Source of the DNA: a virus
Virus record (IMG/VR): IMGVR_UViG_3300045988_168123
Span: 1-15,136 of that record
Length of the DNA stretch: 15,136 nt
Direction: 5' to 3' (one strand)
Below are positions 1-14,603 of this stretch, one piece after another; the stretch's first letter is position 1; each line of letters opens with the position of its first letter. The position numbers and the translations under genes are program-made. Under the pieces are notes generated by a model, which searched no databases, had not been told where the DNA came from, and saw nothing but the letters and a program-made list of their open reading frames with translations.

Positions 1-36
1 TATAATATAGTGCCCACCATACACAAAAAACCCCCA

Positions 37-59
37 AGTGTCCGTGTGGGACGGACACT
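37..59. repeat. Terminal perfect hairpin / palindrome inside the ITR (mirror copy 15078-15100)
   Basis: AGTGTCCGT (37-45), 5-nt loop GTGGG, ACGGACACT (51-59): a 9-bp perfect stem. It is flanked by A6C5 (25-35) toward the genome end. Confidence 0.85.
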
Positions 60-71
60 ACTATGTGTATC

Positions 72-123
72 TGTCCGTCGGGAGAACACACAAAGCGAGT
101 CAAGTGTTCGCAGACGACGGACA
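72..123. repeat. Compound imperfect hairpin inside the ITR (mirror copy 15014-15065)
   Basis: TGTCCGTCG (72-80) pairs with CGACGGACA (115-123), 9 bp. The inner stem is GAACAC (84-89) with GTGTTC (104-109), 6 bp, around a 14-nt loop. It shares the TGTCCGT/ACGGACA core with the 37-59 hairpin. Confidence 0.8.
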
Positions 124-220
124 AAACCGGCAAAATGTGCGTGCAAAAGAGACAGCACTTTGTACAAAATGCGTGTTATAGAGAATTAATATTTTGTGTA
201 ATATTTTATATAGAAAACAC

Positions 221-249
221 TTGCAAAATATATAGAGTCGTGGTATTAT
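221..249 (+). promoter_or_regulatory. Sigma-A-type promoter in ITR-L driving the left-arm genes
   Basis: -35 TTGCAA (221-226), 17-bp spacer, extended -10 TGgTATTAT (241-249). SD GAGGT lies at 288-292 and the ATG at 301. Confidence 0.6.
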
Positions 250-300
250 ATACTTGTAGGGAACAAAGAGATACAGTACAGAAAGTTGAGGTAAGAAAAT

Positions 301-480
301 ATGTTTCATAGTAAAGAATTGAAAAGCTATAAAGGTTATAAAATATTTAAGTCATGGGAAAATGAATTGACATGGGATTATCGAACAGTGCAAGGCGATA
401 TTGAATATCTTGCTTTTGATAACGAATGGAATAAAATAGCAACAGCAAAAACATTACTAGAGTTAAAGAAATTATTATAA
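301..480 (+). CDS. Hypothetical small early protein, 59 aa (below the ORF-track size cut-off)
   Basis: ATG 301 lies 8 nt after the ITR-encoded SD GAGGT, with TAA at 478-480. Translation: MFHSKELKSYKGYKIFKSWENELTWDYRTVQGDIEYLAFDNEWNKIATAKTLLELKKLL. No family recognised. Confidence 0.6.
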   Translation: MFHSKELKSYKGYKIFKSWENELTWDYRTVQGDIEYLAFDNEWNKIATAKTLLELKKLL

Positions 481-499
481 TAAGAAAGATGAGGTAAAA

Positions 500-655
500 A
501 TGAAAACAATAACAGAATTAAGAAAAATGACAGTAGAGCAATTAAAACAATATTTAATGCAGATCGACAAAAGAAAGTATAACATGTTTGGTAGAACTAT
601 CAGTAAAAAAGGCATGCTTATACAAATAATAACTGGTTGCAAATATACAAGATAG
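500..655 (+). CDS. Hypothetical small early protein, 51 aa, with a possible SAP/HeH-like helix-extended-helix motif
   Basis: SD GAGGT lies 5 nt before ATG 500, with TAG at 653-655. Translation: MKTITELRKMTVEQLKQYLMQIDKRKYNMFGRTISKKGMLIQIITGCKYTR. The pattern ELRKMTVEQLKQYL...SKKGMLIQII resembles SAP/Rho-N type DNA-binding motifs. Confidence 0.55.
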   Translation: MKTITELRKMTVEQLKQYLMQIDKRKYNMFGRTISKKGMLIQIITGCKYTR

Positions 656-667
656 GGTGGTAATGTA

Positions 668-895
668 ATGCTTAGTTTAAAAGATCTGTTTTATTATAAC
701 ATTGATTACATGTACAGCGATACATTAACAATTCAATTTGAGGGGAGTAATACTAAATATGAACTCAAATGTGACGATTTAAATAGAATAAGTAATTATC
801 CAGTTCAACGTTTCCACGGTTATGAAGTATGTCTTTTATTTAGCATGCGTGATAGGGATAAACAGTATTTTAAGAAAGTTGGTGTGGAAGAATGA
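668..895 (+). CDS. Hypothetical small early protein, 75 aa
   Basis: ORF-track ORF, with SD-like GGGTGG upstream of ATG 668. No family recognised. Confidence 0.65.
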   Translation: MLSLKDLFYYNIDYMYSDTLTIQFEGSNTKYELKCDDLNRISNYPVQRFHGYEVCLLFSMRDRDKQYFKKVGVEE

Positions 896-1056
896 AACAT
901 GAAAATGATAAAAAATTTTTACTTTTTGCTATTTCAGAAATGCAACTTGCAATTCAAAGCGATCTTTTGAATGGTAATTATTTTTATCTTAAACAAGACA
1001 GGAAATTACTTGACAAATATTACAGAATATTACATGGCAAGAATACTATAAAATAG
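892..1056 (+). CDS. Hypothetical small early protein, 54 aa (below the ORF-track cut-off)
   Basis: ATG 892 overlaps the TGA of the previous gene (ATGA coupling). Translation: MKHENDKKFLLFAISEMQLAIQSDLLNGNYFYLKQDRKLLDKYYRILHGKNTIK. The stop TAG 1054-1056 lies inside the terminator stem. Confidence 0.55.
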   Translation: MKHENDKKFLLFAISEMQLAIQSDLLNGNYFYLKQDRKLLDKYYRILHGKNTIK

Positions 1057-1073
1057 GGTGCTAAGCACCCTAT
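1053..1073. terminator. Hairpin terminator at the convergence point of the two transcription directions
   Basis: ATAGGGTGC-TAA-GCACCCTAT is a perfect 9-bp stem. On the minus strand it is followed by TTTTATAG, a short U-tract. On the + strand the trailing T-run is poor. It overlaps the stop codons of both convergent genes. Confidence 0.6.
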
Positions 1074-1867
1074 TCACGCAAACGGTATAACGACATAGTA
1101 CCAATCACATTAATAGTAGTATTAGATGTTTGCATAGCATATAGAGAAAAAACATCATTTAATTTTGCATCAAAAGGTACTGTCGCAATATTCAAATTCG
1201 TTTTAACAGTTGGAACTGCACGATTGTTAGCAATACCAATGTCAATCGTTTCACCATTTCTTGTTCTTTTAAAAACAATTTGCCTAATACCGTTTTCGTT
1301 TTCTTCGAAGTATCCATTAACGTGAGCAAAATAATGCCCCTCTTTATTTTTATTGTCTATTGTAATAGTTACTATCAAGTTTTCCGATACTGTATTAGGT
1401 ATATTTACACCCTTATAGTCAGCTAAATTTGTACCGATCTTTTTTACACTATCTTCCAACGTTTCTACACGACCGTTTAATGCACTGATCTCCGCTTTAT
1501 CCGTGTTCAGATCGGTCTCAAGTTCTGCTATTGTTCTATCACTGCCACCCTTTAAAGTAGTTAAAGACTGCGAAACCAGTGCCACTTCTGTTTGCAAACC
1601 GGCGATTGATGTAGTACTACCACCCTTGATATTTTTAATATCATCTTTAACATTTGCAATATCTTGCGTGTTTTCGTTGATTTGCGTCCTGTTGTTGTTA
1701 ATCAGTTCCTCATCTGCCGTAAACCGCAATTCATATTTTGAATTTTCTGTTTTCTGCTCACCAACGGCGGTATCTACTTTAAGCATGTCGCTGTTATACT
1801 GATCTAACCAGTTTGGTACATCATTTGGTTCGAATTGCGTTAATTTGATATTTGGCGTTTCTCTCAT
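1070..1867 (-). CDS. Tail fibre / receptor-binding appendage protein, 265 aa
   Basis: It is the last gene of the structural string, with SD AGAGAGGA upstream. It has a conserved-looking fibre N-terminus (IKLTQFEPNDVPNWLDQYNSDMLKVD). A coiled-coil shaft carries a 25-aa internal duplication (KGGSTTSIAGLQTEV / KGGSDRTIAELETDL). The C-terminal ~120 aa are beta-rich. Confidence 0.6.
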   Translation of the reverse strand: MRETPNIKLTQFEPNDVPNWLDQYNSDMLKVDTAVGEQKTENSKYELRFTADEELINNNRTQINENTQDIANVKDDIKNIKGGSTTSIAGLQTEVALVSQSLTTLKGGSDRTIAELETDLNTDKAEISALNGRVETLEDSVKKIGTNLADYKGVNIPNTVSENLIVTITIDNKNKEGHYFAHVNGYFEENENGIRQIVFKRTRNGETIDIGIANNRAVPTVKTNLNIATVPFDAKLNDVFSLYAMQTSNTTINVIGTMSLYRLRE

Positions 1868-1883
1868 TTAATATCCTCTCTTT

Positions 1884-2861
1884 CTACTGGAAAATTTGTT
1901 TTCCAAGTACATAATAATTGTAAGCGGTTGCACCTTTATCAAAATATCCGGTTGCTGTTAATTGCAGAGCGGCATATTCAGCCGCAGTTAATGAATTAAC
2001 TTCCTCATGGAATTTGATAAGCTGTCTGATAACAGGCATAATTGTTTCAAATTTACCACTGTATGGATTTTGCATTGAAAAATCAAACTGAAATAATTTT
2101 CTGTCGTAGCGGCGTCTTAAATTTCTTAAGTACTCAATGCATGTCAATTTAAGATCGGCGTATTCCTGTGCCGTTAGTCCTAAAAATTCATACTCCCTAG
2201 CCGTTAATGCATTACTGCAAATATAATACATCATTTCAAGTGTACTGTTAATATCCATTACTGTTTTTGTAATTGGATTTTTCACATAATACATTTTACG
2301 GCTTTTGTAGAGTTCGTCGCAATATTTTTTCAATTCATTCCAGTAAAAAACATCCTGTTTGTCAATATAAGTATATATCGCATTGATACTTTTTGTCAAG
2401 TCATAAAATTCATTTCTAAGTGCTGTTAGTCTGCCGCTTAATTTTAAATCAAGTTCTGATAACGCATTAAAGAATTTTGTTTCAACATCACTGATTTTGT
2501 TATCCTGTTCGTTCATTCTAGCACGAATTTCATTTTCAAATTTAAGAAGTTTATCAGTAAATTTTTTATCCTGTAAAATCAGTGCTTTTTCTGTATCATC
2601 TTTAAGTTTTGTAATTTCCTTATTTACTTTTGTATTTAGTTCGTCAATTTCTCTGTCGATTTTAGTTTTAAATTCCAAAAGTTCTTTTTTGACATCCTGT
2701 AAAATCGAATCATGAATATTGTTTATAGTTTCTTCAATTTTTGTAATTTCCTCTCCCATTTCATTTAAAATTTTCGATATTGCAAGAAGTTGTTCATAAT
2801 AACTCATGCTATCATCATAACCGATTGGAATTGTACGATAAACGTATGGAAAATATATCAT
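1884..2861 (-). CDS. Structural protein of unknown role, 325 aa (coiled coil plus LTAxEY decapeptide repeats); candidate appendage or fibre-assembly protein
   Basis: SD AGAGGTG lies upstream. Residues ~20-160 are heptad-rich and charged. The C-terminal half has two clusters of exact 10-aa-period repeats (LTAREYEFLG LTAQEYADLK LTCIEYLRNL; LTAAEYAALQ LTATGYFDKG ATAYNYYVLG). It sits between the lower collar and fibre genes. Confidence 0.55.
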   Translation of the reverse strand: MIYFPYVYRTIPIGYDDSMSYYEQLLAISKILNEMGEEITKIEETINNIHDSILQDVKKELLEFKTKIDREIDELNTKVNKEITKLKDDTEKALILQDKKFTDKLLKFENEIRARMNEQDNKISDVETKFFNALSELDLKLSGRLTALRNEFYDLTKSINAIYTYIDKQDVFYWNELKKYCDELYKSRKMYYVKNPITKTVMDINSTLEMMYYICSNALTAREYEFLGLTAQEYADLKLTCIEYLRNLRRRYDRKLFQFDFSMQNPYSGKFETIMPVIRQLIKFHEEVNSLTAAEYAALQLTATGYFDKGATAYNYYVLGKQIFQ

Positions 2862-2873
2862 TTTATCACCTCT

Positions 2874-3824
2874 TTAATATCCGCGTAACGGGCTATACCA
2901 TGCGTTATTTTCTAAAGGTTCATAAAGCCCCAGGAACAAATCATCAAATTCATGTAATAACATTTCATTTATATTTCGGATAGCGGCTCTGTATTTTTCC
3001 AGTTCATCTGTCTTACTGCCGCCGCCCCATCCGCTATCAGAGTAAATGTCTGTATATTCATGTTCATGCTTCATCTGATTTTCACTGTCGATAACATGAC
3101 CATGGGTGAAAGTATTTTGTGACTTGTTGCCTAAAGTTGTAGTGGAAATTGTAGAATCCGCTGATTTCACACTTCCAGTTCCGTCACTTTTCACTGTATC
3201 ATTAACAGTATTTGTACTTTCATCATTCGACTGCCCACGATTTACCTCGCTTGCATAATCTTTTGTTTTCGTAAAACTTGCTTGCGGATAATCGCTTCGT
3301 AATGTCTGATTATTATTCGAACTATTAACAGTCGTTGTGCTTTTGTCTGTTGTAGTGTTTGAATTTTCACTATCGCTTTGCTTTTTTGACTCCGTAATTA
3401 TTTTATCACTGCCACTGTTTTCTGTCAATGACAAATCTTTTCCACTGTTTGTATTTTTTCCAGTTGCATTTTCATTATCTTTCTTTTCACCGTTTCTTTT
3501 TCCACTGATTTCATGATTGATAAGAGGATTATAAGTAATGTTCAGTGCTTTATAAAGATCAGTATAGTATGGAATTTTTTGATAAAATACTCTCTGCATC
3601 TGCATTTTAAATAATGCCATTGTTTCGAACCCGATTTCATCAGTAAAATGGCTTTCTACAAAAATTCGCTTAAAGTTCTCCAAACTACCATCAGAATTAT
3701 CGTTATACCATGGAAAAGGAAAAGAAAAAATATTTTCCGCTGTTTTCATAACACGTTCTTGCCATTTATCACCGGTCGTAAAACTGTCGTAAATGTCTTT
3801 GAAACAAAGTGTATAGTAAGCCAT
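2874..3824 (-). CDS. Lower collar (gp11-like) protein, 316 aa
   Basis: It lies immediately downstream of the portal gene, as in phi29 (gene 10 then 11). Its start overlaps the portal stop (TAATG) after SD GAGGTGG. The motif DEIGFETMALFKMQMQRVFYQKIPYYTDLY resembles lower-collar proteins. It has a long Ser/Thr/Asn-rich central insertion. Confidence 0.6.
   Translation of the reverse strand: MAYYTLCFKDIYDSFTTGDKWQERVMKTAENIFSFPFPWYNDNSDGSLENFKRIFVESHFTDEIGFETMALFKMQMQRVFYQKIPYYTDLYKALNITYNPLINHEISGKRNGEKKDNENATGKNTNSGKDLSLTENSGSDKIITESKKQSDSENSNTTTDKSTTTVNSSNNNQTLRSDYPQASFTKTKDYASEVNRGQSNDESTNTVNDTVKSDGTGSVKSADSTISTTTLGNKSQNTFTHGHVIDSENQMKHEHEYTDIYSDSGWGGGSKTDELEKYRAAIRNINEMLLHEFDDLFLGLYEPLENNAWYSPLRGY
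3400..3428 (-). promoter_or_regulatory. Candidate internal promoter inside the lower-collar gene
   Basis: Minus strand reads TTGACA (3428-3423), 17-bp spacer, extended -10 TGaTAAAAT (3408-3400). The 10-mer ATTGACAGAA is identical to the -35 context of the 11610-11638 promoter. Confidence 0.35.
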
Positions 3825-4720
3825 TATTCCACCTCGCTATCTCTTTCAGCCGAAACATTATTCAATAATGGAATATCAGAATTAAATTCCACGGTGATAT
3901 TTAAGCCGAAAAGTTTATTAATCTGCTCTGCACTCCGCTGTCTAACTCCCAGTGCATTTTTTCGGTTCATTTCTAATTCTCCCGTATTTCCATCAACTTC
4001 TCCACTAACAGATCGTTCCTTTTTATCGGAATAAAAGCTGTTAATACCTAAAAATGTACAGGCGTCCGACATTTCCCAACGCATTGCGGCGTCTAACTCT
4101 GGAAATAATACCGGTGCTTCAGTTCTTACTGATTTTAAATCACCATTGTCACGAACACCTTTTTTCAAATGAATAAACGGAATACCGTCGATAATTTGTT
4201 TCATGATATTCATGGCAGATAATTTTTGTTCACATGTGCTAGTTACCAAAACAGGTGTGCGGTTTGCAATCAAGTTTACATCACGGGAAATTCTCATGTT
4301 TGCCAATGCGTCTGCATGCATGGCAATAATATCGGCGCTAGGGTAATCGGTCATGTTGTCATGTAGTAAAACACTATTTTCTTTTGTTAATTCAGCGTTA
4401 TAATTAATGGAATACGCAAACCGCATATCACCATAACCATAAATATCCAAGTTACCGGCTGTTGTAACGTTCATCACTGCAAACATGTTTGCAATATCAT
4501 CTTTAAAGAAAATACCATTCCCACGAAAAAATAACATTTCTTCCAAGAATCGTGGGTCAATTTCCGGCGGCAGATTTTTCCATTTGAATCGAGTTACTGC
4601 CAGTCCTAATAGATAATAAAAATATCTATTAAAATATAGATTGTATTTTGTATTTTTTCCACAAAATTTTCCTCTTAAGACATCAATATTTGAACTGTTT
4701 CTTCCCATCATTAACCTCAT
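3824..4720 (-). CDS. Portal / connector (upper collar, phi29 gp10-like), 298 aa
   Basis: It matches remembered phi29 gp10 blocks. [19 protein letters not shown] matches [27 protein letters not shown] matches [28 protein letters not shown] matches [33 protein letters not shown] matches INELYGLNVKVKF. The start could instead be Met4/Met5, just after GAGGT. Confidence 0.9.
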   Translation of the reverse strand: [298 protein letters not shown]

Positions 4721-6363
4721 TCATTACTTAATGCATAATTTCCTATATCGTTAGTATGCCATACTGTTACACCATTGTCAAATATTTTTCGCATTTTTTC
4801 CAACATGTCAATAGGGAATTTTCCATCAATACTGCAATTTTGTGTTTTCACATAATTCCATGATGAGCGACCTGTGATATCCGGCTTCTTTACTCTGCAA
4901 ATTTTATAACCAAACATGGAAAAATAATCGTCAATTACCTTTGCAAATTCTGCCGTGATTGATACGGGATAAACAGAAATACAGTCAAAGTTAGCCGCTT
5001 TTGGTAAAGTGTTACTGATTGAACCTTTTATACCATCTGCCTGTAATTGTGCCTGGTAATTCCCGCTTAATAAACTATAAACGGAATTACCAAAATTTGA
5101 CGCAACTTGATTTCCAGTAACTTTCTGTTCTCCCCCGATCGCTCCGATAATATCACCGATTCCGGCGATTGATTGCCCGACCGTCATGATACTTCTTCCA
5201 ATCCAATCTCCTGTATTGGTTGGTACATTATCTCCCGTTGCTAAAGACATGATTAAATTGTTACTGTTTTGAGCCAGCCAAGCTTTGTATGCGTCAACAG
5301 GAAATGCAATTTTTGGATAACCGTTAAACGTAATTGAATCTCCAAAATTTTCCTGTACACCTTTATAATATTGTGGATAACAATAAAGTGTAGGGTTCGG
5401 TGAAACATTTACAGTATAATAAAAATTGCAAAGATCATCAGCACCCGGCGTGTGGAATCGTTCAAATTCAAACTGTTTAATTTGACCGCTGTTGTTTGTC
5501 ATTTGTAAAAATGAATATGGGTAAGCAAATAATTTATTATTTTTCGGCGTGTACCCGTTAATATCTTTTATACTTTTCTTTGAAAAGGAAAAAGTCTTTT
5601 TTACAATGTTATTCACATCGGCAAATGTCGCCGGCATTTCCCAAGCGTCGACAATATCATCTGCACTTCCTTTAGCGGTTATAACATTTTCAATATAAGT
5701 CTGCAAATCTGCCAAACTGGTATACACTCCAATGTATAAGCCACATGGCACGTTTTGATATAAAGACATTTCTGCTGTTTCAGCATTATTATCAACTGCG
5801 CTTGCCACGCAATATACAACCTCTCTCCGTTCATCCCCCTCAGCCGGTATCGTCGATAAAGAGTTGTTGCCGTTTACAACATAATCTCCTAACTGTAATC
5901 CCTCTGGATAAGTGTAACGACCACGGATATCGGAACTTTTCTTTACGATTTCACGTTCAACGAAGCATTCTTTTAACTCAATATCGAACTGACATTCATT
6001 CCAAACATCCAGTTCAAATTTTACATGTGTTACTGTTGCGCTTACAGGCGTAACTGATCTGATAAATGCATAATGCGGCGTGTTATCCCATGGTGTATTT
6101 ACAAAACGCATATAATTACACTTATAAGCAAGTGCTTGATTGTAATCTATCGCAATATCAATTTCTCCCATGCTAATAAATGACACTTCTGTTGTAGTAA
6201 ACTTTACAAGAGTTTCAAGAAAAGTGTCTAATTGCGTTCTGTTTGAATATTTCCTTACATGCGTGTAATTATAATCCCACGGAACTCCGCTATACAATTT
6301 TAATTCAGCTTGAGGGGTGGAACTCTCCACCCCTACTGAATCTGGAAAAGGTATATACTCCAT
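4717..6363 (-). CDS. Tail knob / tail tube protein (phi29 gp9-like), 548 aa
   Basis: The N-terminal region aligns with remembered phi29 gp9: YAFIRSVTPVSATVTHVKFELDVWNECQFDIELKECFVEREI versus [42 protein letters not shown]. It lies between the capsid and portal genes, as in phi29. Confidence 0.85.
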   Translation of the reverse strand: MEYIPFPDSVGVESSTPQAELKLYSGVPWDYNYTHVRKYSNRTQLDTFLETLVKFTTTEVSFISMGEIDIAIDYNQALAYKCNYMRFVNTPWDNTPHYAFIRSVTPVSATVTHVKFELDVWNECQFDIELKECFVEREIVKKSSDIRGRYTYPEGLQLGDYVVNGNNSLSTIPAEGDERREVVYCVASAVDNNAETAEMSLYQNVPCGLYIGVYTSLADLQTYIENVITAKGSADDIVDAWEMPATFADVNNIVKKTFSFSKKSIKDINGYTPKNNKLFAYPYSFLQMTNNSGQIKQFEFERFHTPGADDLCNFYYTVNVSPNPTLYCYPQYYKGVQENFGDSITFNGYPKIAFPVDAYKAWLAQNSNNLIMSLATGDNVPTNTGDWIGRSIMTVGQSIAGIGDIIGAIGGEQKVTGNQVASNFGNSVYSLLSGNYQAQLQADGIKGSISNTLPKAANFDCISVYPVSITAEFAKVIDDYFSMFGYKICRVKKPDITGRSSWNYVKTQNCSIDGKFPIDMLEKMRKIFDNGVTVWHTNDIGNYALSNE

Positions 6364-6373
6364 TTCATTCTCC

Positions 6374-7648
6374 CTAAGATATAGTAACTGTTCCTGTTCC
6401 GCTCACTGTGCTATCAGTTCTGCTTGTAACTGTTACAGTTAAAGTTGTAGCTTTTTCATCGTTTCCAATACTAAGGATATTAGAACCCGGAATGAATTTT
6501 GTAAAAGCTGACTTATTTCCGCTAACTGAATAATCAAATACCTGTGAAACATATCCTGTATCGCCTGTATTTGTTGCTTTTGCTTTGATCTCAACTGTTG
6601 TCGCTTTTGACGCCGTTGCATTTTCAACAGTAATTGTTTCTGCCGCATTCTGTTCCGTTGTGAAAATAATCATCGGAAAGAAAGGACTATAAGAGTACAT
6701 CTGCGACAGTGTATAGAAATAATTCCATGTAAGTGCCGCACCGTTTCTGCTGTCGGACATTGTTCTGAAATTCTCACGCACTTTAAACCAACGCATATCG
6801 AAAAGAACTGCTTTAATTTCCGTGTTTGCAAATTTATCCACAATGATCTTGTGCGCCGTGATATCAACTTTGTTATCGTGAAACGCTGTTGCCAAAACGT
6901 CCACGTCGAGTACTGCGTCCATTTCCGGCGTTACCATGTAATAAATTCCGTTTTCCAATGCAGAGGATGTCGCACCGGCAATGTTATATTCCGGGTGTGG
7001 AAACTTCATCTGATTGATGTAAGATTTCATTGCGATCGTTAATTCACGTGCCGCCGCTGAATCGTTATTTCCACTTACCTGTACATTGTAAAGCTGTCCT
7101 TTTTCATATGCAGATTCAATCAGCATTTTCATTGTCAAGTATTCGTCATATTCCGCACTTGCATAAACCGCTTGCACTTTTGCATTAATAAGATCACGAA
7201 TACCATAGTCACTGGTAAAAGCCATTCTAAGATTATCATAAGTAATCGTTAGTGGATATTGAATCGCTGGATTCACCTTGTGATAAGCCGACATCACATT
7301 GCTGTCGTAAAAAGCAAATAACTCATTCGTTCCGGCAAAAGCGTCGAATGTTTTTCCTTTGATCATATTAACAAAAATTTCCTGTTCCGTAAGTCCATAC
7401 CTCATTGGGTCTGTCTTTAAAGCGGTCAATGGATTTTTGAAATAAGACGCATTGATTTGCGTTAACGCAATTCTGCCTATCAGACTTGCGATAAATTCAT
7501 TCCGAACCGGCTCAACGTTTAAAATTTCATCATAAATACCCTCAATCGAATTTTTAATCGGGTCGGGAATCCGTGTGTTTGGATTCATATCCCGTAACGC
7601 ACGAATAATATTTTCATTAGTTGCCGGTGTTTTTACTGTGGTTGACAT
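6374..7648 (-). CDS. Major capsid protein, 424 aa, with a C-terminal Ig-like (BIG2-type) domain
   Basis: It has a very strong SD (GAGGGGGG) and follows the scaffold gene, as phi29 gene 8 follows gene 7. Its size is similar to gp8. The last ~88 aa (ETITVENATASKATTVEIKAKAT...TLTVTVTSRTDSTVSGTGTVTIS) look like an Ig-like beta-sandwich. Confidence 0.75.
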   Translation of the reverse strand: MSTTVKTPATNENIIRALRDMNPNTRIPDPIKNSIEGIYDEILNVEPVRNEFIASLIGRIALTQINASYFKNPLTALKTDPMRYGLTEQEIFVNMIKGKTFDAFAGTNELFAFYDSNVMSAYHKVNPAIQYPLTITYDNLRMAFTSDYGIRDLINAKVQAVYASAEYDEYLTMKMLIESAYEKGQLYNVQVSGNNDSAAARELTIAMKSYINQMKFPHPEYNIAGATSSALENGIYYMVTPEMDAVLDVDVLATAFHDNKVDITAHKIIVDKFANTEIKAVLFDMRWFKVRENFRTMSDSRNGAALTWNYFYTLSQMYSYSPFFPMIIFTTEQNAAETITVENATASKATTVEIKAKATNTGDTGYVSQVFDYSVSGNKSAFTKFIPGSNILSIGNDEKATTLTVTVTSRTDSTVSGTGTVTIS

Positions 7649-7662
7649 TTCTTTACCCCCCT

Positions 7663-7944
7663 CTACTCTGTTTCTGCTGAAAAATCAAGAGAACCAACAT
7701 CTACTGTTTTCGGTTCTTCTTCTTTTTCGTCCTCTGTTACATCTGCTCGCACCTCTGTATTCAGAGATTCTTTAAACCGTTTTTTGTAAACCTCTGATAA
7801 TTCACGGTATTTTGTTTCCCAGTCATCAGCGTTTACAGAACTTGTATTTTCATTTTTTAATGTTTCTACAACCTCATCAAATTCCGCAATCCGTTCTTCT
7901 GGGATAATGTCAATTACTTTACTGATTGCTTCATCAAAAGTCAT
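7663..7944 (-). CDS. Scaffolding protein, 93 aa (gp7-like by position and composition)
   Basis: It is a small, highly acidic protein predicted to be helical. It is the first gene after the late promoter and lies immediately upstream of the capsid gene. Confidence 0.6.
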   Translation of the reverse strand: MTFDEAISKVIDIIPEERIAEFDEVVETLKNENTSSVNADDWETKYRELSEVYKKRFKESLNTEVRADVTEDEKEEEPKTVDVGSLDFSAETE

Positions 7945-7970
7945 TTTTCTATACCTCTCTTTCTAAATAT

Positions 7971-7999
7971 ATTGTAATATAAAGTTGGTTGCGTGTCAA
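7971..7999 (-). promoter_or_regulatory. Late (structural-gene) sigma-A-type promoter
   Basis: Minus strand reads TTGACA (7999-7994), 17-bp spacer, TACAAT (7976-7971). SD AGAGAGG and the scaffold ATG at 7944 follow. The -35 overlaps the stop codon of the upstream gene. Confidence 0.65.
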
Positions 8000-8658
8000 G
8001 AAAAAGTTTTAAAATAAGCATTCCTTAAATAAAAAAGCTGTTTAAACTCTTTCTTAATTGGTTTAATTGGTGTTGGCGGTTCTGTTCCGGCAAAAATACT
8101 GTAATAATATTCTCCATAAGCCGCTCTTAAATTTTCCTGTGACGCTGATTGATCAGCCGGCTGTTCATAATTATGCAGAACAAAATCACTTGCATGCTTA
8201 ATAGAAGTTGCTGTTTGACATGTAGTTAAAGTGCTTCTATAACCACCTTGCAATTCAGATAATGCAAAACCTACTGCTACATTCACGTCTCCGACCTGTG
8301 ATATTCCACTTGCTTTCCAAAAATCCCAGTAAGCAGATTTTCTAGTCGGGTATGTCCATTGCGCCAAGCTATAACCTAATTTATTGGTAACAAATTCATT
8401 TTTTGTAATTGTTCCGTTATCTATTGAGTTAGAATAATCAACAGAAATTTGAGTCGGCGGCGTATCTCCTTGTTTGCAAAATGGACAATTATAACTTTCT
8501 ACTTGCCAGTTTCCCATGATTCCGGCAACGCCGTATTCATTTCCAACGATTGCCTTTAATAAACTCCATATGCTTGCGGCGTAATTAAACACCCGGACAC
8601 TTACTGTGCCATAGTTTGAGTTATAAGCGACAACCGTAGAAGATAAATCATAAGCCAT
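7996..8658 (-). CDS. Phage-tail-lysozyme-like (Phage_lysozyme2-type) muralytic protein, 220 aa
   Basis: Three motifs are typical of that family: GIMGNWQVES, GYSLAQWTYPTRKSAYWDFW and FVLHNYEQPAD...RAAYGEYYYSIF. There is no clear SD, and the ATG lies 2 nt after the endolysin stop. Confidence 0.6.
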   Translation of the reverse strand: MAYDLSSTVVAYNSNYGTVSVRVFNYAASIWSLLKAIVGNEYGVAGIMGNWQVESYNCPFCKQGDTPPTQISVDYSNSIDNGTITKNEFVTNKLGYSLAQWTYPTRKSAYWDFWKASGISQVGDVNVAVGFALSELQGGYRSTLTTCQTATSIKHASDFVLHNYEQPADQSASQENLRAAYGEYYYSIFAGTEPPTPIKPIKKEFKQLFYLRNAYFKTFS

Positions 8659-8660
8659 AA

Positions 8661-9326
8661 TTATTCAACAGAGGAAAAACCGGCTGACCATGTGTTTTTT
8701 CCCACTTTTCCGTCTACTGTCAATCCGTGATTTTTCTGAAAAGATTTTGTAACTTTTTCAGTATTTGCACCAAAAACACCATCAGGCGTAATGCCTATAA
8801 TACACTGCCATATTTTAACGGCTTTTCCTTTACTTCCTTTTTGAATTAATTTCATATTATAATCTCCATTTTCTAAACCACACGAAACTTTTACTGCTGT
8901 TTTAAAAAGTACACATTCCTGTTTTCTCCGTGACTCAAGACCACTAAGTTTTTTCTTTTTTCCATTTACAGTAGCATAACAGTATTTTAACATTGCAACT
9001 GCAATTTGCTGTTTTGTCCGTGTTCCATTTGCGGTGACTCCTTTCACATTTCCGACATTGAATGCAAAGGAAACCAGAGCGGAAAATTCATTTTCATTGA
9101 AATTGTAATTTCCTTTTGCATTGATATTGGAAACCATTTTTTCGAATCTCTCAACGTCTTTCTTAAGAAGTTTATCAGCATCTTCTTTACAGATAAAATC
9201 ACCATCTTTTACGCCACCGGTGTGCCCAAAACCGATCGTCCAAACTCCCGCCGGACATCTATAAGCTCTTGCACGAAAACCCTCAAAACGCTTAATGATG
9301 ATTAAGCCTTTTTCATTTATTTTCAT
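8661..9326 (-). CDS. Endolysin: GH24 phage lysozyme plus C-terminal PG_binding_1 domain, 221 aa
   Basis: The N-terminus KINEKGLIIIKRFEGFRARAYRCPAGVWTIGFGHT is the GH24/T4-type lysozyme signature, with the catalytic Glu in FEG. The C-terminus KGKAVKIWQCIIGITPDGVFGANTEKVTKSFQKNHGLTVDGKVGKNTW is a peptidoglycan-binding repeat. I prefer ATG 9326 (SD AGAGGTGG 5 nt upstream) to the GTG at 9335 used by the ORF track. Confidence 0.9.
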   Translation of the reverse strand: MKINEKGLIIIKRFEGFRARAYRCPAGVWTIGFGHTGGVKDGDFICKEDADKLLKKDVERFEKMVSNINAKGNYNFNENEFSALVSFAFNVGNVKGVTANGTRTKQQIAVAMLKYCYATVNGKKKKLSGLESRRKQECVLFKTAVKVSCGLENGDYNMKLIQKGSKGKAVKIWQCIIGITPDGVFGANTEKVTKSFQKNHGLTVDGKVGKNTWSAGFSSVE

Positions 9327-9717
9327 CTTTTCCACCTCTGATTTGTATACATTTTTCTTTTAACCAATCCGGTAAGGGGATATATTCCCCAGTATTTTCA
9401 ACAATACTCAATCCCTCATTTGCACAAAAGAATGACAAGATAACTTTTGTCAAATCAGTTCTTAAATAAAAATCAAAAGCCATGCAAAGAGAAACGATCA
9501 CAACCATGTAAAATTTTTTCACAATTCCGGCAAAGCAAACCTCTGAATTTAAAGTACCATTCTGAAATGCTTTCACAATTCCTGTGATGAAATCTAAACA
9601 CATCAGAATATAAAGCACTGGCAGATAATTAATTCCGGTAAATAAAAAACCGACAACAGCCAAAACTATTGTTATTAACAACACTGCTACTGAAAACATT
9701 TTTTTGCTTATTTTCAT
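9313..9717 (-). CDS. Holin (Phage_holin_4_1 / LL-H type), 134 aa
   Basis: There are several hydrophobic TM segments (FSVAVLLITIVLAVVGFLF, LPVLYILMCLDFITGIV, FYMVVIVSLCMAFDFYL). The family signature FFCANEGLSIVENTGEYIPLPDWL is present. The start is placed at ATG 9717 after SD AGAGAGGAAAAA. The ORF stays open in frame up to ATG 9843 (see findings). Confidence 0.85.
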   Translation of the reverse strand: MKISKKMFSVAVLLITIVLAVVGFLFTGINYLPVLYILMCLDFITGIVKAFQNGTLNSEVCFAGIVKKFYMVVIVSLCMAFDFYLRTDLTKVILSFFCANEGLSIVENTGEYIPLPDWLKEKCIQIRGGKDENK

Positions 9718-9737
9718 TTTTTCCTCTCTTTCTATGG

Positions 9738-9815
9738 GGCGGTTTCTTTTAACTTCTCCACCACGGAGATACGCACTGTTTTTCCAGTTGGTTCTGCTAT
9801 CAGTTAAAATCCACC
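9738..9815 (-). promoter_or_regulatory. Structured non-coding leader / candidate small RNA between the ATPase and holin genes
   Basis: On the minus strand, GGUGG-A-UUUUAACU (9815-9802) can pair with AGUUAAAA-GAAA-CCGCC (9754-9738). These enclose two hairpins: ACUG/CAGU (9788-9775) and UCUCC-GUGGU-GGAGA (9769-9755). Folded by eye only. Confidence 0.25.
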
Positions 9816-9833
9816 GTTTTTCCCCGTGATTAA

Positions 9834-9862
9834 ACAATATCATATTTATCCGTACATGTCAA
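9834..9862 (-). promoter_or_regulatory. Candidate promoter in the last codons of the ATPase gene (lysis cassette / leader)
   Basis: Minus strand reads TTGACA (9862-9857), 17-bp spacer, extended -10 TGaTATTGT (9842-9834). It shares AGGTATTGACA with the promoter at the polymerase gene end. Confidence 0.45.
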
Positions 9863-10907
9863 TACCTAACAATAAAAAAATTATATTTTTTATTTCAATA
9901 TTTTCAAAAGTTAAATAAGCATTATCGAATGCATTTTCCAATGTTTTGAAAATGAAAGATGAACGCTTTAACATAACAGTATTTTGACTATGATTTTCCG
10001 GCGTAAAAGCAAAAGTATAAAATGCACTGGGATCAATTTTATCATTGCAGTGTATTTCTCCACTTTCATAAAATTCACGCACACCGATTTTTTTATCGCC
10101 GTATTCTATTGTACATAAATATCGAGATTTTCCAGTCTGCTTTTTAATGAAAGCGGACATATTAATCAAATAAGAATTTTTTGCTGTCATGTACTCTGTA
10201 AATGCTGAATTTGATTCGGAAAAGGCACGGACAATATTATTTCCCGATACCGCTTTATCTGCTGATGAATTATAACCCTGTTCCAAAACCCAACCATGAC
10301 CACGGAGAAAATGCACGTTATCCGTTAAACGTTGCGTGATTCCCAGTGAAATGTAATAAGGATTCAGAATTGATATATTGTTCGATAACATGTAAAGATC
10401 AATGTTTCGTGACTGCGAACCACCACCACGGGCGATTGATATAATCAATGACATTAATTTTTGCGGTTCATTTTTCATATAACGTCCGTTTTCTAACTGG
10501 TATTCATCGAATAATGCACGATTTACATTATAAAAAAGCGGACTGTATTTTTTCATTTTATCGACTGCAAATAAACCGACAGCATAACCGCATAAATGAC
10601 TTTCTTCATCCTTTAATATAATCTGATAAAACAGACCTTTCGCACATGCTTTTGTTTCCATTGAATAATTCGGATATTCTCTTTGCAAAATATCAGCAAA
10701 AATGTTGTGTGCGTCCGACATTTCATATTGGTTTCGATAAATGATTGCAAATTGTGTTCCGTCCTGTAAAAAATACTCGATAAATTCTTTCAATACTGCT
10801 GTTGTTTTTCCGGCAGATCGGTTACTTGAAATAAGGAAAATGGACGGTTTTTTCCCGTCCAAGTCCTTTATCTTTTTTATTTTATCGAGCGTATAATAAC
10901 CGCTCAT
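9846..10907 (-). CDS. DNA encapsidation (packaging) ATPase, phi29 gp16-like, 353 aa
   Basis: Walker A is SSNRSAGKTT and Walker B is ALFDEY. Two blocks align with remembered gp16. FLISSNRSAGKTTAVLKEFIEYFLQDGTQFAIIYRN matches FVIGARGIGKSYAMKVYPINRFIKYGEQFIYVRRY. YMLSNNISILNPYYISLGI matches ICLSNAVSVVNPYFLFFNL. The start overlaps the upstream stop (TAATG). Confidence 0.9.
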   Translation of the reverse strand: MSGYYTLDKIKKIKDLDGKKPSIFLISSNRSAGKTTAVLKEFIEYFLQDGTQFAIIYRNQYEMSDAHNIFADILQREYPNYSMETKACAKGLFYQIILKDEESHLCGYAVGLFAVDKMKKYSPLFYNVNRALFDEYQLENGRYMKNEPQKLMSLIISIARGGGSQSRNIDLYMLSNNISILNPYYISLGITQRLTDNVHFLRGHGWVLEQGYNSSADKAVSGNNIVRAFSESNSAFTEYMTAKNSYLINMSAFIKKQTGKSRYLCTIEYGDKKIGVREFYESGEIHCNDKIDPSAFYTFAFTPENHSQNTVMLKRSSFIFKTLENAFDNAYLTFENIEIKNIIFLLLGIDMYG

Positions 10908-11239
10908 TACAGTATCTCCAGAGTTAAGAATTTTCTTCCGTTTTTACTCTCCGATGAGCGAATAGTAAAAGGAATACCGGCTTTAATTTCTTCCGGTGTG
11001 TATTCTGCCTCAATCATTTCAACAGTAGAACGGACGTTTGCAGATGTAGAACCGATAAAACCATCCTGTGTTTTAATTGATGTAACGATCTGTACTGTAC
11101 CATCTTCTTTTGTATCTTCATAAATTACAAAACCGGTCATTATTAATGATACCCCGGTATAATCTTTCATTACGCCCATTGCATTGCCGGCGTTGATAGC
11201 ATCTTTTTTGCTGTCTAAATTTGTACTTAAAACTTTCAT
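10907..11239 (-). CDS. Putative ssDNA-binding protein (phi29 p5-like), 110 aa
   Basis: SD AAGGAG lies upstream. The C-terminal half resembles remembered phi29 p5. [31 protein letters not shown] matches [51 protein letters not shown] matches FKVKVVQGTSSKGNVFFSLQLSL. The similarity is from memory, not computed. Confidence 0.5.
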   Translation of the reverse strand: [110 protein letters not shown]

Positions 11240-11263
11240 GTCTCTTCTCCTTTTCTTTTACAG

Positions 11264-11560
11264 TTATTTAGCGTCTACCAGTTTACCATCTACTACCGGT
11301 TTTGCAATTTTCAGAAATTCTTCCACCGTAATACCAAGCAGACGTTCGCTTGTAGATGTTACTTCCGCAATGACTTTTTTCACGTCGTGTTCTTTAGCGA
11401 TCTTTTTAAGATCGCTTTCTTTTAATTTCTCCGGCACTGTTACAGTATCTAACATAGTGATTGCACCATCTTCCAAACTGTACAGATTATAAGTATAACT
11501 GTCTGTCACGGTTCGTGTTAATAAAGGTACTCTTTTTCCTGTCTTTTCTTTGTTACTCAT
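11264..11560 (-). CDS. Putative dsDNA-binding replication accessory protein (phi29 p6-like), 98 aa
   Basis: I prefer ATG 11560 (SD AGAGAGGAAAG upstream) to the TTG at 11605 used in the ORF track. It is the first gene after a near-consensus promoter. The C-terminal LGITVEEFLKIAKPVV resembles remembered p6 YELPVEKFLEVATVRV. It is small and charged. Confidence 0.4.
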   Translation of the reverse strand: MSNKEKTGKRVPLLTRTVTDSYTYNLYSLEDGAITMLDTVTVPEKLKESDLKKIAKEHDVKKVIAEVTSTSERLLGITVEEFLKIAKPVVDGKLVDAK

Positions 11561-11609
11561 TCTTTCTTTCCTCTCTTTCTTGAGTTTGTCTGTTCCTTTG
11601 AACAATTAT

Positions 11610-11638
11610 ATATTAACAGATTTATTGTATTCTGTCAA
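11610..11638 (-). promoter_or_regulatory. Near-consensus sigma-A-type promoter embedded in the last codons of the polymerase gene
   Basis: Minus strand reads TTGACA (11638-11633, inside codons G-I-D of ...GIDRIQ*), a 17-bp spacer ending in TGt, then -10 TAATAT (11615-11610). Confidence 0.65.
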
Positions 11639-13676: not shown

Positions 13677-14317
13677 CTAAATAATCTCCTATATTCTTTT
13701 TTCTGCTCTTTATCCATTTTTTCGCCGTGATCATGCATGTACTGTAATTCCTGTACTTCTGCAATTTTATCATAAAATTCATTCCATCCAAATTTAAAAT
13801 TTTGAAAATCAATAAATAATTTTTTCAATGTGTCCAAAGGTAATTCGTCATGAACGTCTAAGAAAAATTCCTGTAAATCCTCAGACGCTATTAATTGTGA
13901 CATGGTTTTGTACTCCTCAGATGTTAAAAAATCAAAAAAATCATTCTGATTTTCATAATTTAATTCAAGACCACGCATGAAAATTCCTTCGTCCGTTACC
14001 CTATCTTTTTTCAATTCAGAAACAGCCCGTGCGTGTGCTTTTTTCGCACCTGTTATCGTGGATGTTGGTCTATTCAAAAAGTCCTCTAGCTGATTTAGAG
14101 TTGCTGTTAAATTTTTATCTGATATCCGTTTTGAAAAATGCGGTTTTTCCTTGCCCTGTAATTTTCCTAGACGCTTATAAGCGTATTGAGTCAAGCCGGC
14201 TTTTTCCAAACGTGATAGGCGTTTATTAGCAAGTGCTGATAATTCTTTTACAGCCTGTTTTAACTGATCGCCTTGCAATTTTCGTATTGCTTCGAAATCG
14301 TATTTGCGTTCTTTCAT
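13673..14317 (-). CDS. Putative terminal (priming) protein, 214 aa
   Basis: It lies immediately upstream of the protein-primed polymerase and is translationally coupled to it (ATGA at both ends), as phi29 gene 3 is to gene 2. It is charged and helical. No sequence motif was recognised, so the call rests on position only. Confidence 0.5.
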   Translation of the reverse strand: MKERKYDFEAIRKLQGDQLKQAVKELSALANKRLSRLEKAGLTQYAYKRLGKLQGKEKPHFSKRISDKNLTATLNQLEDFLNRPTSTITGAKKAHARAVSELKKDRVTDEGIFMRGLELNYENQNDFFDFLTSEEYKTMSQLIASEDLQEFFLDVHDELPLDTLKKLFIDFQNFKFGWNEFYDKIAEVQELQYMHDHGEKMDKEQKKEYRRLFR

Positions 14318-14592
14318 AATGCACCACCCATTGCTTGTATAATTATTTTGTCCTCTATTTTTCTATAAAGATCTTCCAATGAAACAAAATCGTTTTTTAC
14401 TGTTAAGTAAAATGAATTAAAATAAATATAAAGTGTATTGCCGATAAAATCAATTTCTATTAATTTTATTGACTTAAAACGCAAGTATAATGCTGTAACG
14501 TTTCCGAGTATTTCTACAACTTCTATATCAGTCATGTGAGATTCTACCAAGCTTAATTTTTCTTTTTCTGATAAACCACCTAACTTTTCCAT
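14314..14592 (-). CDS. Hypothetical early protein, 92 aa
   Basis: SD AAGGAG lies 6 nt before ATG 14592. The stop overlaps the next start (ATGA). No family recognised. Confidence 0.7.
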   Translation of the reverse strand: MEKLGGLSEKEKLSLVESHMTDIEVVEILGNVTALYLRFKSIKLIEIDFIGNTLYIYFNSFYLTVKNDFVSLEDLYRKIEDKIIIQAMGGAL

Positions 14593-14603
14593 TTGTATCT
14601 CCT

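Follow-up and report, generated by a model that had tools for sequence, protein, structure and literature searches.

Bacillus phage phi29 has host sigma-A early promoters near its genome ends (PMC11476376, PMC4974454), and because its terminal repeat is only 6 bp long (AAAGTA), these promoters lie outside the repeat (PMC11476376). Streptococcus phage Cp-1 (Salasmaviridae, Cepunavirus) is a protein-primed podophage with inward early genes at both ends. We examined its ends, and those of the tectivirus PRD1, directly from the GenBank records. A 236-bp repeat is annotated in Cp-1, yet the two ends align at 97.7% identity to base 352, and the aligned stretch harbors two tandem TTGACA-17-TATAAT promoters per arm. 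The annotated starts are PE1/PE2 at 351/357 on the left and PE4/PE5 at 351 and 257 nt from the end on the right, and the first genes begin 376 and 375 nt from the ends. The similarity of the arms fades from the transcription start onwards; their leaders are not the same, nor are their Shine-Dalgarno (SD) sequences (AAAGGAG vs AAAGAGG). In Clostridium phage HM2, the repeat is 170-174 nt long with arms that are 98.8% identical, and TTGACA-17-(TG)GATAAT is found on both; the repeat ends just past the -10 box, and the inward genes start 22-32 nt beyond, each with its own leader and SD. The HM2 record is nearly without annotation. PRD1 also has a linear protein-primed genome, inward early genes at both ends and promoter-like hexamers at matching distances from each end. 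However, its perfect 110-bp repeat stops before these elements, which differ between the ends (TTGTAA...TAAAAT vs TTGCAC...TATAAT); the signals therefore adjoin the repeat and are not duplicated within it. In the linear genomes of adenoviruses and poxviruses, the terminal repeats have origin functions and also contain transcription elements or entire genes, the arms are kept alike, and the repeat length changes by exchange between the ends. These are eukaryotic viruses with unrelated sequences and proteins, and they offer only an analogy of mechanism. A full-text search, with the original Cp-1 genome paper lying outside it, returned no paper on promoters inside the terminal repeats of Cp-1, PRD1 or phi29-like phages.

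The DNA analyzed in this study, hereafter the window, is a stretch of 15,136 nucleotides (positions 1 to 15,136 of IMG/VR record IMGVR_UViG_3300045988_168123). Judged from its gene content and its ends, the window spans the entire linear genome of an uncultivated phi29-like podophage replicating by protein priming; the group considered comprises the phi29-like protein-primed podophages (Salasmaviridae / Guelinviridae and allies). A 299-nt inverted repeat occupies exactly both ends. The 684-aa ORF at 11622-13676 is 42-44% identical to the polymerases of HM2 and an Amedibacillus phage over >90% of the length, and its homologues carry PF03175, the mark of a family-B protein-primed DNA polymerase. 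By this protein, HM2 is the closest named relative among the matches listed (44.5% identical), and Cp-1 is absent from the best 30 phage records of the polymerase search. PHROG matches in the window include the terminase phrog_2150, the major head protein, the upper collar connector, the lower collar and a tail protein, and PF25622, PF05352, PF16838/PF20934 and PF05894 are found on orthologues 97-99% identical to the window proteins. The phi29-type set of capsid, connector, tail knob and gp16 packaging ATPase is thus present, and phi29 shares with the window the polymerase, the gp16 ATPase, the connector and the capsid. Phi29 differs in the outward orientation of the early genes on its left side, and it has a pRNA gene (147-320). 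No RNA gene was found in the whole window by Rfam at permissive thresholds (E <= 1), a pRNA included, or by a tRNA scan. A pRNA is documented for Bacillus phages only (PMC11476376); therefore, it may not define the wider phi29-like group.

Four small genes at 301-1056 are on the + strand and all other genes are on the - strand, and outside the repeats the non-coding stretches are no longer than ~60 nt. The genes nearest the ends are as follows:

301-480, + strand: left first gene, 59 aa, ATG at 301
500-655, 668-895 and 892-1056, + strand: three more small left-end genes from the ORF list
14604-14837, - strand: right first gene, 77 aa, ATG at 14837
11622-14592, - strand: early genes behind the right repeat, of 92 aa (14314-14592), 214 aa (13673-14317) and the DNA polymerase (11622-13676)

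None of the six small end-proximal proteins, the left 59-aa protein among them, had a family in the PHROG searches, and the 214-aa candidate terminal protein likewise had no PHROG hit, nor was a priming residue identified in it; its gene lies directly upstream of the polymerase gene in close relatives, and in most other relatives its homologues lie near the same end. The 59-aa protein has an identical or 92% identical copy on at least 11 contigs, and its gene directly follows the repeat in every locus returned. Homologues of the genes in 500-1056 are present in some relatives and missing from others. The right 77-aa protein is 95-97% identical in the relatives L007-L009. The initial annotation described the two first genes as unrelated, and a comparison of the proteins confirms this (E = 0.12).

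The same annotation proposed that the repeat is a duplicated expression cassette and that both first genes inherit one set of transcription and translation signals from it. The motifs on which this proposal rested (TTGCAA-17-TGgTATTAT and GAGGT) are all at the coordinates it quoted, and the inverted repeat (98%) indeed ends at ATG 301 on the left and ATG 14837 on the right. The parts of the repeat are as follows:

1-299, + strand: left inverted terminal repeat, 98% complementary to 14838-15136
14838-15136, - strand: right inverted terminal repeat, mirroring the left arm
39-45, 51-57, 72-78 and 117-123, mirrored in 15014-15100, no strand assigned: four TGTCCGT/ACGGACA heptamers of the outer domain 37-123
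164-197, mirrored in 14940-14973, no strand assigned: inverted repeat ACAAAAT (164-170) / ATTTTGT (191-197) upstream of the -35 box
221-249, + strand: predicted sigma-A-type promoter, left copy, with -35 TTGCAA (221-226), a 17-nt spacer, TG (241-242) and -10 TATTAT (244-249)
14916-14888, - strand: predicted promoter, right copy, mirroring the left copy
256-300, + strand: left leader (5' UTR), with a predicted start near 256 and SD GAGGT at 288-292
14838-14881, - strand: right leader, with a predicted start near 14881 and SD at 14845-14849

This is by far the longest inverted repeat of the window. The arms differ at 229, 233-236, 259 and 293 (mirror positions on the right arm) and diverge at 300; five of the seven substitutions fall in the spacer between -35 and -10. 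The SD core GAGGT lies within GAAAGTTGAGGTAA at 281-294 (mirror 14843-14856), and the gap between SD and ATG is 8 nt on each arm. As in Cp-1, each arm thus contains an inward -35/-10 promoter, here a predicted one, and an inward gene directly downstream, but the window has one promoter per arm, and its repeat, unlike that of Cp-1, takes in the leader and SD as well and ends at the start codon. The length was initially described as far greater than that of the phi29 repeat and somewhat greater than the 236 bp of Cp-1. The first comparison stands, whereas the second holds only against the annotated repeat because the Cp-1 ends align to 352 bp; with relatives at 285-325 bp, the window is typical of its family.

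The base composition divides the repeat into a relatively GC-rich outer part (48.7% in 1-160) and an AT-rich inner part (27.3% in 161-299; whole genome 34.3%). The outer heptamers form two hairpins (37-45/51-59 and 72-80/115-123). The window has 11 copies of the heptamer where 1.15 would be expected, 8 of them within the two arms, and the fold of bases 1-220 has z = -4.1 on each strand. GTGTCCG/CGGACAC-type motifs are also found in the outer repeats of distant relatives, and within the repeat the domain 37-123 probably serves as the origin or for protein binding. The physical DNA end may lie elsewhere than at base 1; a related clade begins with AAAGTTACATAG, compared with TATAATATAG in the window. 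The ORF at 63-311 was rejected as coding sequence since it lacks an SD and since one arm of L009 has a 4-nt deletion that disrupts the reading frame; on the right arm, this ORF is an in-frame extension of the 77-aa gene (the 156-aa ORF 14604-15074).

In the inner part, TTGCAA/TATTAT scores 9/12 against the consensus, with a weak -35 and an extended TGg. We rejected this score as evidence of a promoter because promoter-like sites are as numerous in this AT-rich genome (77) as in its shuffles (66 +/- 7.3). An outward-facing promoter in the repeat, such as Cp-1 annotates, was also rejected, no site on the outward strand reaching >=10/12. The exact full pattern TTG-N17-TGNTATTAT is found within the window on the two arms only. 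The inverted repeat at 164-197 may be an operator or an UP-like element. Since the motif score is not significant, the case for promoter function rests on the relatives. In addition, only repeat DNA lies upstream of both outermost gene blocks (301-1056 on the + strand and 14837 downwards on the - strand). Therefore, their promoter must lie in the repeat if, as we infer, a linear protein-primed genome has no read-through past its end.

No near-identical DNA was found in the GenBank phage collection or in IMG/VR (searched by polymerase and by a 22-nt repeat pattern), and this pattern had no match in JGI metagenome contigs. The relatives were reached through protein searches and Logan/ENA contigs; in the Logan contigs, the inner boundary was placed by means of the 30-nt inverted overlap that the assembler leaves, and not by full repeats. 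Metagenomes that contain the phage include the sources of SRR12234429, ERZ27259060 and ERR9710406. The initial annotation had suggested aligning the repeats of related genomes, and in four such genomes the TTG of the -35 box and most of the -10 box are invariant on all eight arms, as are ACAAAA and TTTT of the 164-197 inverted repeat. Close relatives have three versions of the spacer, and their hexamers are fixed except for CATTAT on one L009 arm. Among the four genomes with invariant boxes, the identity between arms falls to 87.5% in L018 and only 74% in L015. Across ten genomes, between-arm differences occupy 9 of 200 positions in the -35, extended -10 and SD and 112 of 1130 elsewhere (Fisher p = 0.011, in a test that pools related genomes). 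The most variable segment is the spacer (13.6%), and the 5-nt SD core is without a mismatch (0/50 positions). The relatives thus support the proposal that both first genes share the same transcription and translation signals.

Similar arrangements are found at greater distances. In the L001/L002 genomes, Cp-1 and HM2, 25-37 nt separate a similar promoter from the first ATG, and in the L059 clade, whose capsid is ~43% identical, the distance of TTGACA-17-TGGTATTAT from this codon is 44-51 nt. This different clade of gut phi29-like phages (IMG/VR, Logan/ENA; e.g. L059, L066, L070, L072, L086, L100) has the architecture of the window: on both arms, TTGACA-17-TGGTATTAT, a 44-48-nt leader and AAGGAGG all belong to the repeat, which ends a few nt before the ATG, and the small first genes on the two arms are unrelated. 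Their sisters L071, L080, L093 and L097 have a short repeat without the cassette, a form that was not found in the window's own clade. Another phi29-like contig, of 18 kb, has 30 nt of the window's promoter in common and was binned into a Christensenellaceae genome, which gives a weak clue to the host.

The extent of the repeat is associated with the layout of the genes. It ends <=20 nt from the first ATG in 23 genomes, and in 19 of these an inward gene lies at that distance on the other arm as well. In another 22 genomes, the repeat stops before the -35 box, and none (0/22) has an inward gene at the far end; 17 of the 22 belong to one clade, and shared ancestry inflates this association. The contigs of L071 and L072, which are nearly identical in sequence, keep 66 vs 141 nt of the repeat, without vs with the cassette. 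These comparisons support the view that the cassette is included in the repeat almost only where the far end has an inward gene. There are exceptions. In L073 and L102, the promoter and SD on one arm are followed by a terminator and the end of an outward gene, and a gene behind the cassette is therefore not strictly required; one of the two L015 arms is followed by a gene that has its own SD and begins 61 nt past the repeat. The cassette can thus persist without a gene directly behind it. Apart from L073 and L102, the suggestion that the repeat boundary is set by gene expression, and not only by origin function, is supported by the relatives, in many of which the inner edge tracks the start codon.

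We consider it likely that the repeat combines an outer origin part with an inner early expression cassette that ends at the start codon, and that recombination moves its edge. The outer ~1-160, with its hairpins of TGTCCGT/ACGGACA, would most likely serve as the replication origin and in end recognition. The inner ~160-299 would provide an AT-rich upstream region with an inverted repeat, a sigma-A-type promoter, a leader of ~45 nt and GAGGT. The host RNA polymerase would start in each arm and read inwards. On the right, it would transcribe the genes of the 77-aa and 92-aa proteins and those of the candidate terminal protein and the DNA polymerase, and on the left between one and four small accessory genes, a set that varies. 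The two cassette copies are kept alike because the arms evolve in concert; between the window and L009, 13 sites have changed in both arms together and 1 is arm-specific. The inner edge would lie at the start codon because the upstream DNA is interchangeable between the arms and the coding sequences are not, and recombination at similar ribosome-binding site (RBS) sequences probably shifts the edge and swaps the first gene. A candidate for such a recombination point, able to shift the repeat boundary, is the following:

484-497, + strand: second copy of the RBS motif, GAAAGnTGAGGTAA, before ORF2

The RBS motif has 3 matches in the window, compared with 0.57 expected. In L009, which lacks ORF1, the repeat passes straight into the ATG of the ORF2 homologue; ORF1 is also deleted in L007, and the number of left-end genes varies from 1 to 4 across relatives.

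More tentatively, the end of the repeat may be a gene-capture site, where small accessory genes are deleted, swapped and plugged in behind the early signal, a possibility that we rate as unlikely. The cassette would be copied to both ends, the arms would be kept alike, and recombination would take place at the short repeated RBS motif; such a site would be loosely comparable to the cassette site of an integron, without a dedicated recombinase. If true, gene capture would explain the boundary at the ATG, the different first genes in near-identical genomes and the orphan cassettes.

A selectively passive origin of the left copy seems to us rather improbable. The promoter would be needed on the right arm only, where it serves the replication genes, and the left copy would be a by-product of homogenization up to the coding DNA, with the ATG boundary marking the limit of tolerated conversion and not selection for a second cassette. 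The concerted evolution of the arms, the orphan cassettes facing a terminator in L073 and L102, and the left-end genes, which are small, variable and dispensable among close relatives, are all compatible with this explanation. However, the left copy is the sole possible promoter for the left-end genes, as there is no other upstream DNA, and mismatches spare the hexamers and SD of both arms even where arm identity is 74%. Moreover, the cassette is absent from the repeat in 22 of 22 genomes without inward genes at the far end, despite the presence of homogenizable non-coding DNA by the promoter.

We regard it as very unlikely that a separate product is encoded in the repeat or in its outer part, either an RNA like the phi29 pRNA in two copies or a small protein (ORF 63-311). 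The gp16-type ATPase and phi29-type connector would suit such an RNA, non-coding stretches longer than ~60 nt are confined to the repeats, the fold of 1-220 (z = -4.1) holds for both strands, and the Cp-1 record annotates an outward-facing -35/-10 inside its repeat. Nevertheless, Rfam returned no match at E <= 1 and the repeat scan no outward promoter at 10/12; the hairpin motifs are kept by sequence and not by compensatory changes, which suits protein-DNA binding; and ORF 63-311 lacks an SD and is broken on one L009 arm. A product of this kind concerns the outer part and is compatible with a promoter in the inner part.

We assign a still lower probability to the view that all 299 bp serve as the origin, in packaging or in terminal-protein recognition, the promoter-like and SD-like motifs being incidental in AT-rich DNA. 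In its favor, the consensus score by itself is not above chance, long repeats are common in the phi29-like family, and the origin-binding protein p6 of phi29 spans a few hundred bp at the ends (established knowledge; see PMC4974454, PMC10899789). Under this view, however, conservation should not be concentrated in the TTG, the TATTAT box and the SD, as it is, instead of being evenly spread; relatives of nearly the same sequence whose repeat stops just before the -35 box indicate that the inner part is dispensable for replicating both ends; and if the repeat held no promoter, no transcription signal would lie upstream of the genes for the candidate terminal protein and the polymerase. Finally, an assembly artefact (a fold-back chimera or duplicated end), an alternative raised in the initial annotation, is extremely unlikely: metagenome assemblers handle terminal repeats badly, most related contigs end inside the repeat and two IMG/VR contigs begin with Illumina adapter sequence, but the arms are non-identical (7-8 differing positions), the same arms, each with its own first gene, recur in independent assemblies of other samples made by different assemblers, and comparable repeats occur in dozens of relatives and in the cultured phages Cp-1 and HM2.

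The design of a duplicated cassette is not new, as the annotated starts of Cp-1 lie within its aligned ends and the HM2 repeat also holds a promoter; what the window adds to these two cases is a repeat that also takes in the leader and SD. For annotation, it helps to know that gene callers start the first ORF too far out, within the repeat, as in the 156-aa ORF 14604-15074, and that assemblers cut contigs within it. For the engineering of linear protein-primed replicons, the repeat offers a compact natural cassette in which an origin would be combined with a predicted promoter. The small, fast-changing first genes are probably early host-takeover or anti-defence genes. Small protein-primed phages are very common in gut metagenomes, and a scan of IMG/VR found at least 558 related stretches. 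A simple rule may apply to the ends of these phages: the outer repeat would be the replication end, and the inner part, if present, would carry the early promoter, leader and RBS. An inner cassette in the repeat would then predict a block of accessory genes at the far end.

The inverted repeat arms at 1-299 and 14838-15136 are 98% complementary, as established by a repeat search and by reading both window ends, which confirms the 299-bp terminal repeat described in the initial annotation. The arms mismatch at 229, 233-236, 259 and 293 and diverge from 300 onward: on the left, T300 stands just before ATG 301, and on the right, the equivalent base is the A of ATG 14837. Homology therefore stops next to the two start codons as claimed, the predicted promoter and Shine-Dalgarno (SD) motif are present and mirrored on the right arm, and a protein comparison finds no similarity between the 59-aa and 77-aa first ORFs. 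The observation of a duplicated cassette is confirmed. The features of the repeat and of the genome behind it are as follows.

221-249, + strand: predicted promoter, left copy (-35 TTGCAA 221-226, 17-nt spacer, TG 241-242, TATTAT 244-249)
14916-14888, - strand: predicted promoter, right copy (mirror)
288-292, + strand: SD GAGGT, within GAAAGTTGAGGTAA at 281-294
164-197, mirror 14940-14973: ACAAAAT-N20-ATTTTGT inverted repeat, 24 nt upstream of the -35
37-123, mirror 15014-15100: four TGTCCGT/ACGGACA heptamers per arm, with two hairpins (37-45/51-59 and 72-80/115-123)
301-1056, + strand: four small ORFs, the sole + strand genes
14837 down to 1070, - strand: gene block, starting with the 77-aa and 92-aa ORFs
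strand block: 214-aa ORF, candidate terminal protein by position
strand block: protein-primed family-B DNA polymerase, 44.5% identical to that of Clostridium phage HM2
strand block: two small proteins, then gp16-type packaging ATPase, holin and two lysins
strand block: phi29-type capsid protein, tail knob, upper and lower collar, two fibre-like proteins

Gene assignments rest on PHROG matches and on Pfam families found on 97-99% identical orthologues. The repeat promoter scores 9/12 against the sigma-70 consensus, and the window contains 77 promoter-like sites versus 66 +/- 7.3 in shuffles. Such a bare consensus match is unremarkable, and promoter function must be judged by context and by comparison with relatives.

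The window, a whole phi29-like podophage genome, has tightly packed genes, and repeat DNA alone lies upstream of both outermost gene blocks. In a linear protein-primed genome, no transcription can read in from outside the ends. Therefore, we strongly infer that the promoters for the polymerase operon and the left-end genes lie inside the repeat or the first small genes. The extended promoter pattern, with one mismatch allowed, also occurs on the - strand at 11638-11610, just past the polymerase gene, and at 9862-9834, at the ATPase/holin junction. Both sites carry TTGACA-17-TGnTAnnnT on the coding strand at junctions between genes of the long operon; they are candidate middle or late promoters, and their presence fits a dependence of the phage on extended -10 sigma-A promoters of its host. 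At 10841-10861, approximately 46 nt into the packaging ATPase gene, lies a perfect 7-bp GC-rich hairpin with T-runs on both strands. It resembles a terminator and might act as an attenuator that separates early from late parts of this operon. The holin ORF (9313-9843, - strand) has 176 aa in the window and in its relatives L007-L009 versus 128-137 aa in more distant relatives; its first ~40 codons are probably untranslated, and an internal MKISKK is the likely true start.

No near-identical sequence was found in the GenBank phage set or IMG/VR, and protein searches returned a large family of related 14-17-kb contigs, which were retrieved whole via the capsid gene (handles beginning with L denote these relatives). 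Assemblers usually cut the repeat from the outside, and Logan contigs end with a 30-nt inverted overlap that marks its inner edge. Across eight aligned arms, taken from four genomes, the -35 TTG and most of the -10 box are invariant, despite arms that are only 74% alike in L015 and 87.5% alike in L018. The ACAAAA and TTTT of the upstream inverted repeat are invariant in all eight arms, even amid diverged flanking sequence; this element may help the promoter from upstream, or serve as the operator of a switch from early to late expression. Three versions of the 17-nt spacer occur among close relatives, and the hexamers are fixed but for CATTAT on one L009 arm. Pooled over ten genomes, between-arm differences amount to 9/200 in the -35, extended -10 and SD versus 112/1130 elsewhere (Fisher p = 0.011); the SD-to-ATG stretch is the most variable class, followed by the spacer (13.6%). 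Even a clade with an only ~43% identical capsid has TTGACA-17-TGGTATTAT in its repeat, with 44-48 nt from the -10 end to the ATG versus 50-51 nt in the window.

L112 (JAZLAE010000049.1) is a distinct phi29-like phage of 18 kb (tail protein identity 27%, connector identity 33%). At 435-464 it matches the repeat promoter over 30 identical nt (GTCGTGGTATTATATACTTGTAAGGAAC), which span the -10 box and the initial transcribed region. There, TTGACA lies 17 nt upstream, and the promoter precedes a 60-aa gene right behind a terminator. The match suggests that a promoter module is shared or was transferred. Binning places the L112 contig in a Christensenellaceae genome, which hints weakly at the host.

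According to the initial annotation, the repeat boundary appears to be set by gene expression and not by replication-origin function alone. We surveyed every genome with a locatable inner repeat edge. In 23 genomes, the repeat ends at most 20 nt from the first ATG, and in 22 it ends before the -35; an inward-reading gene is found on the other arm, at the same distance, in 19 of the former and at the far end in none of the latter, counts that support the claim and are inflated by shared ancestry. The 23 include four exceptions: in L007 the gene is deleted, in L015 it starts 61 nt further on and has an SD of its own, and in L073 and L102 a terminator faces the cassette. In the 22 short-repeat genomes, the far end is occupied by the long operon's last gene, which reads outward. 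The repeat would thus include the cassette when the far end has something to express.

The closest relatives, L007 and L009 (L009 capsid 97% identical), have the same arms as the window. In L009, which is without the 59-aa gene (ORF1), the left arm abuts the ATG of the homologue of the next gene (ORF2); in L007, ORF1 is reduced to its first five codons. At least 11 contigs, taken from different samples, encode an identical or 92% identical ORF1 protein, with the gene directly behind the repeat in every locus returned and in a left-end block of one to four genes. This block (301-1056) is very plastic among the near-identical genomes L007, L009 and L105-L109, with extra DNA in L106, and the right-end genes are fixed; its accessory genes may serve early host takeover or anti-defence. 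The ribosome-binding motif GAAAGnTGAGGTAA is repeated ahead of ORF2 (3 matches versus 0.57 expected), and either a deletion between two such copies or conversion reaching the ATG would produce the L009 arrangement. Because the edge ranges across lineages from 18 nt inside to 11 nt before the first gene, we favour a model in which inter-arm exchange, or deletion, at similar ribosome-binding regions would shift it, and selection would then purge events that harm needed coding sequence. In L010-L012, the capsid is 90% identical to that of the window, whereas the DNA polymerase is only ~59% identical and the terminal repeats are unrelated; such mosaics indicate that the replication-and-end module and the structural module have been exchanged.

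Comparison of the window with L009 shows 13 sites that changed jointly in the two arms versus 1 in a single arm, which is the pattern of concerted evolution. The left cassette copy may be a mere by-product of such homogenisation, although selection on both copies agrees better with the data.

That the repeat encodes a product of its own is not supported: Rfam finds nothing, an ORF in the repeat is broken in a relative, and the repeat has no convincing outward promoter. A packaging RNA is a possible product, since bases 1-220 are strongly structured (z = -4.1, either strand) and the two repeats are the sole non-coding stretches longer than ~60 nt; however, Rfam detected no pRNA-like RNA in the whole window, despite the gp16-type ATPase and phi29-type connector. 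The ORF inside the repeat was also rejected as a real gene. From ATG 15074, which lies in the repeat, the reading frame runs on into the 77-aa gene and yields a spurious 156-aa ORF (14604-15074, - strand). The same gene-caller extension or extra ORFs appear inside the repeats of L007 (1-264) and L009 (3-224), an annotation pitfall for this phage family.

The outer heptamer occurs 11 times in the window versus 1.15 expected, and GTGTCCG/CGGACAC-type motifs recur in the outer repeats of the distant relatives L026, L038, L015, L054 and L002. These motifs are kept by sequence and not by compensatory changes, a pattern suggestive of binding by a protein for replication or end recognition. The genomes of a related clade (L026, L038, L039 and L055) begin with AAAGTTACATAG, resembling phi29 AAAGTA and Cp-1 AAAGCATG; the window (1-10) begins with TATAATATAG and L054 with CCTGTAATATG. 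A few terminal bases may be missing from the window, or a TA-repeat end may be used for sliding back. The IMG/VR contigs L043 (1-49) and L059 (1-41) carry Illumina adapter (…ACACTCTTTCCCTACACGACGCTCTTCCGATCT) at both ends, counted within their "terminal repeat".

A replication role for the full 299 bp is contradicted by the short-repeat relatives. L071 and L072, of one clade and nearly the same sequence, retain 66 nt and 141 nt of repeat on their contigs; the former stops two bases before TTGACA, and the latter reaches the ATG on both arms. Therefore, the cassette is dispensable for replicating both ends. For practical purposes, an assembly artefact can be dismissed, as the arms are non-identical and independent assemblies agree on them. 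Within the reach of sequence comparison, interpretation as a duplicated expression cassette is supported.

The repeat is far longer than the 6 bp of phi29 (PMC11476376), as had been stated. It also exceeds the 236 bp annotated in GenBank for Cp-1, yet alignment of the Cp-1 ends extends, at 97.7% identity, as far as base 352. Within that stretch, each Cp-1 arm has two tandem TTGACA-17-TATAAT promoters (annotated starts: left 351/357; right 351 and 257 nt from the end), and the first genes begin at 376 and 375. A duplicated early promoter in a terminal repeat is therefore already documented; however, the leader and SD of Cp-1 have diverged between arms, whereas those of the window lie inside the repeat. 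In HM2, the closest named relative, the repeat contains the promoter and ends right after the -10 box, and the 110-bp repeat of PRD1 ends before promoter-like elements that differ between ends. In the literature searched, we found no description of a promoter-bearing repeat in this phage family. The window is a clear example of the Cp-1 design, which is probably the common state in a large family of uncultivated gut phages, in which the two repeat forms, gene swapping at the repeat edge and the conserved outer motifs deserve attention.
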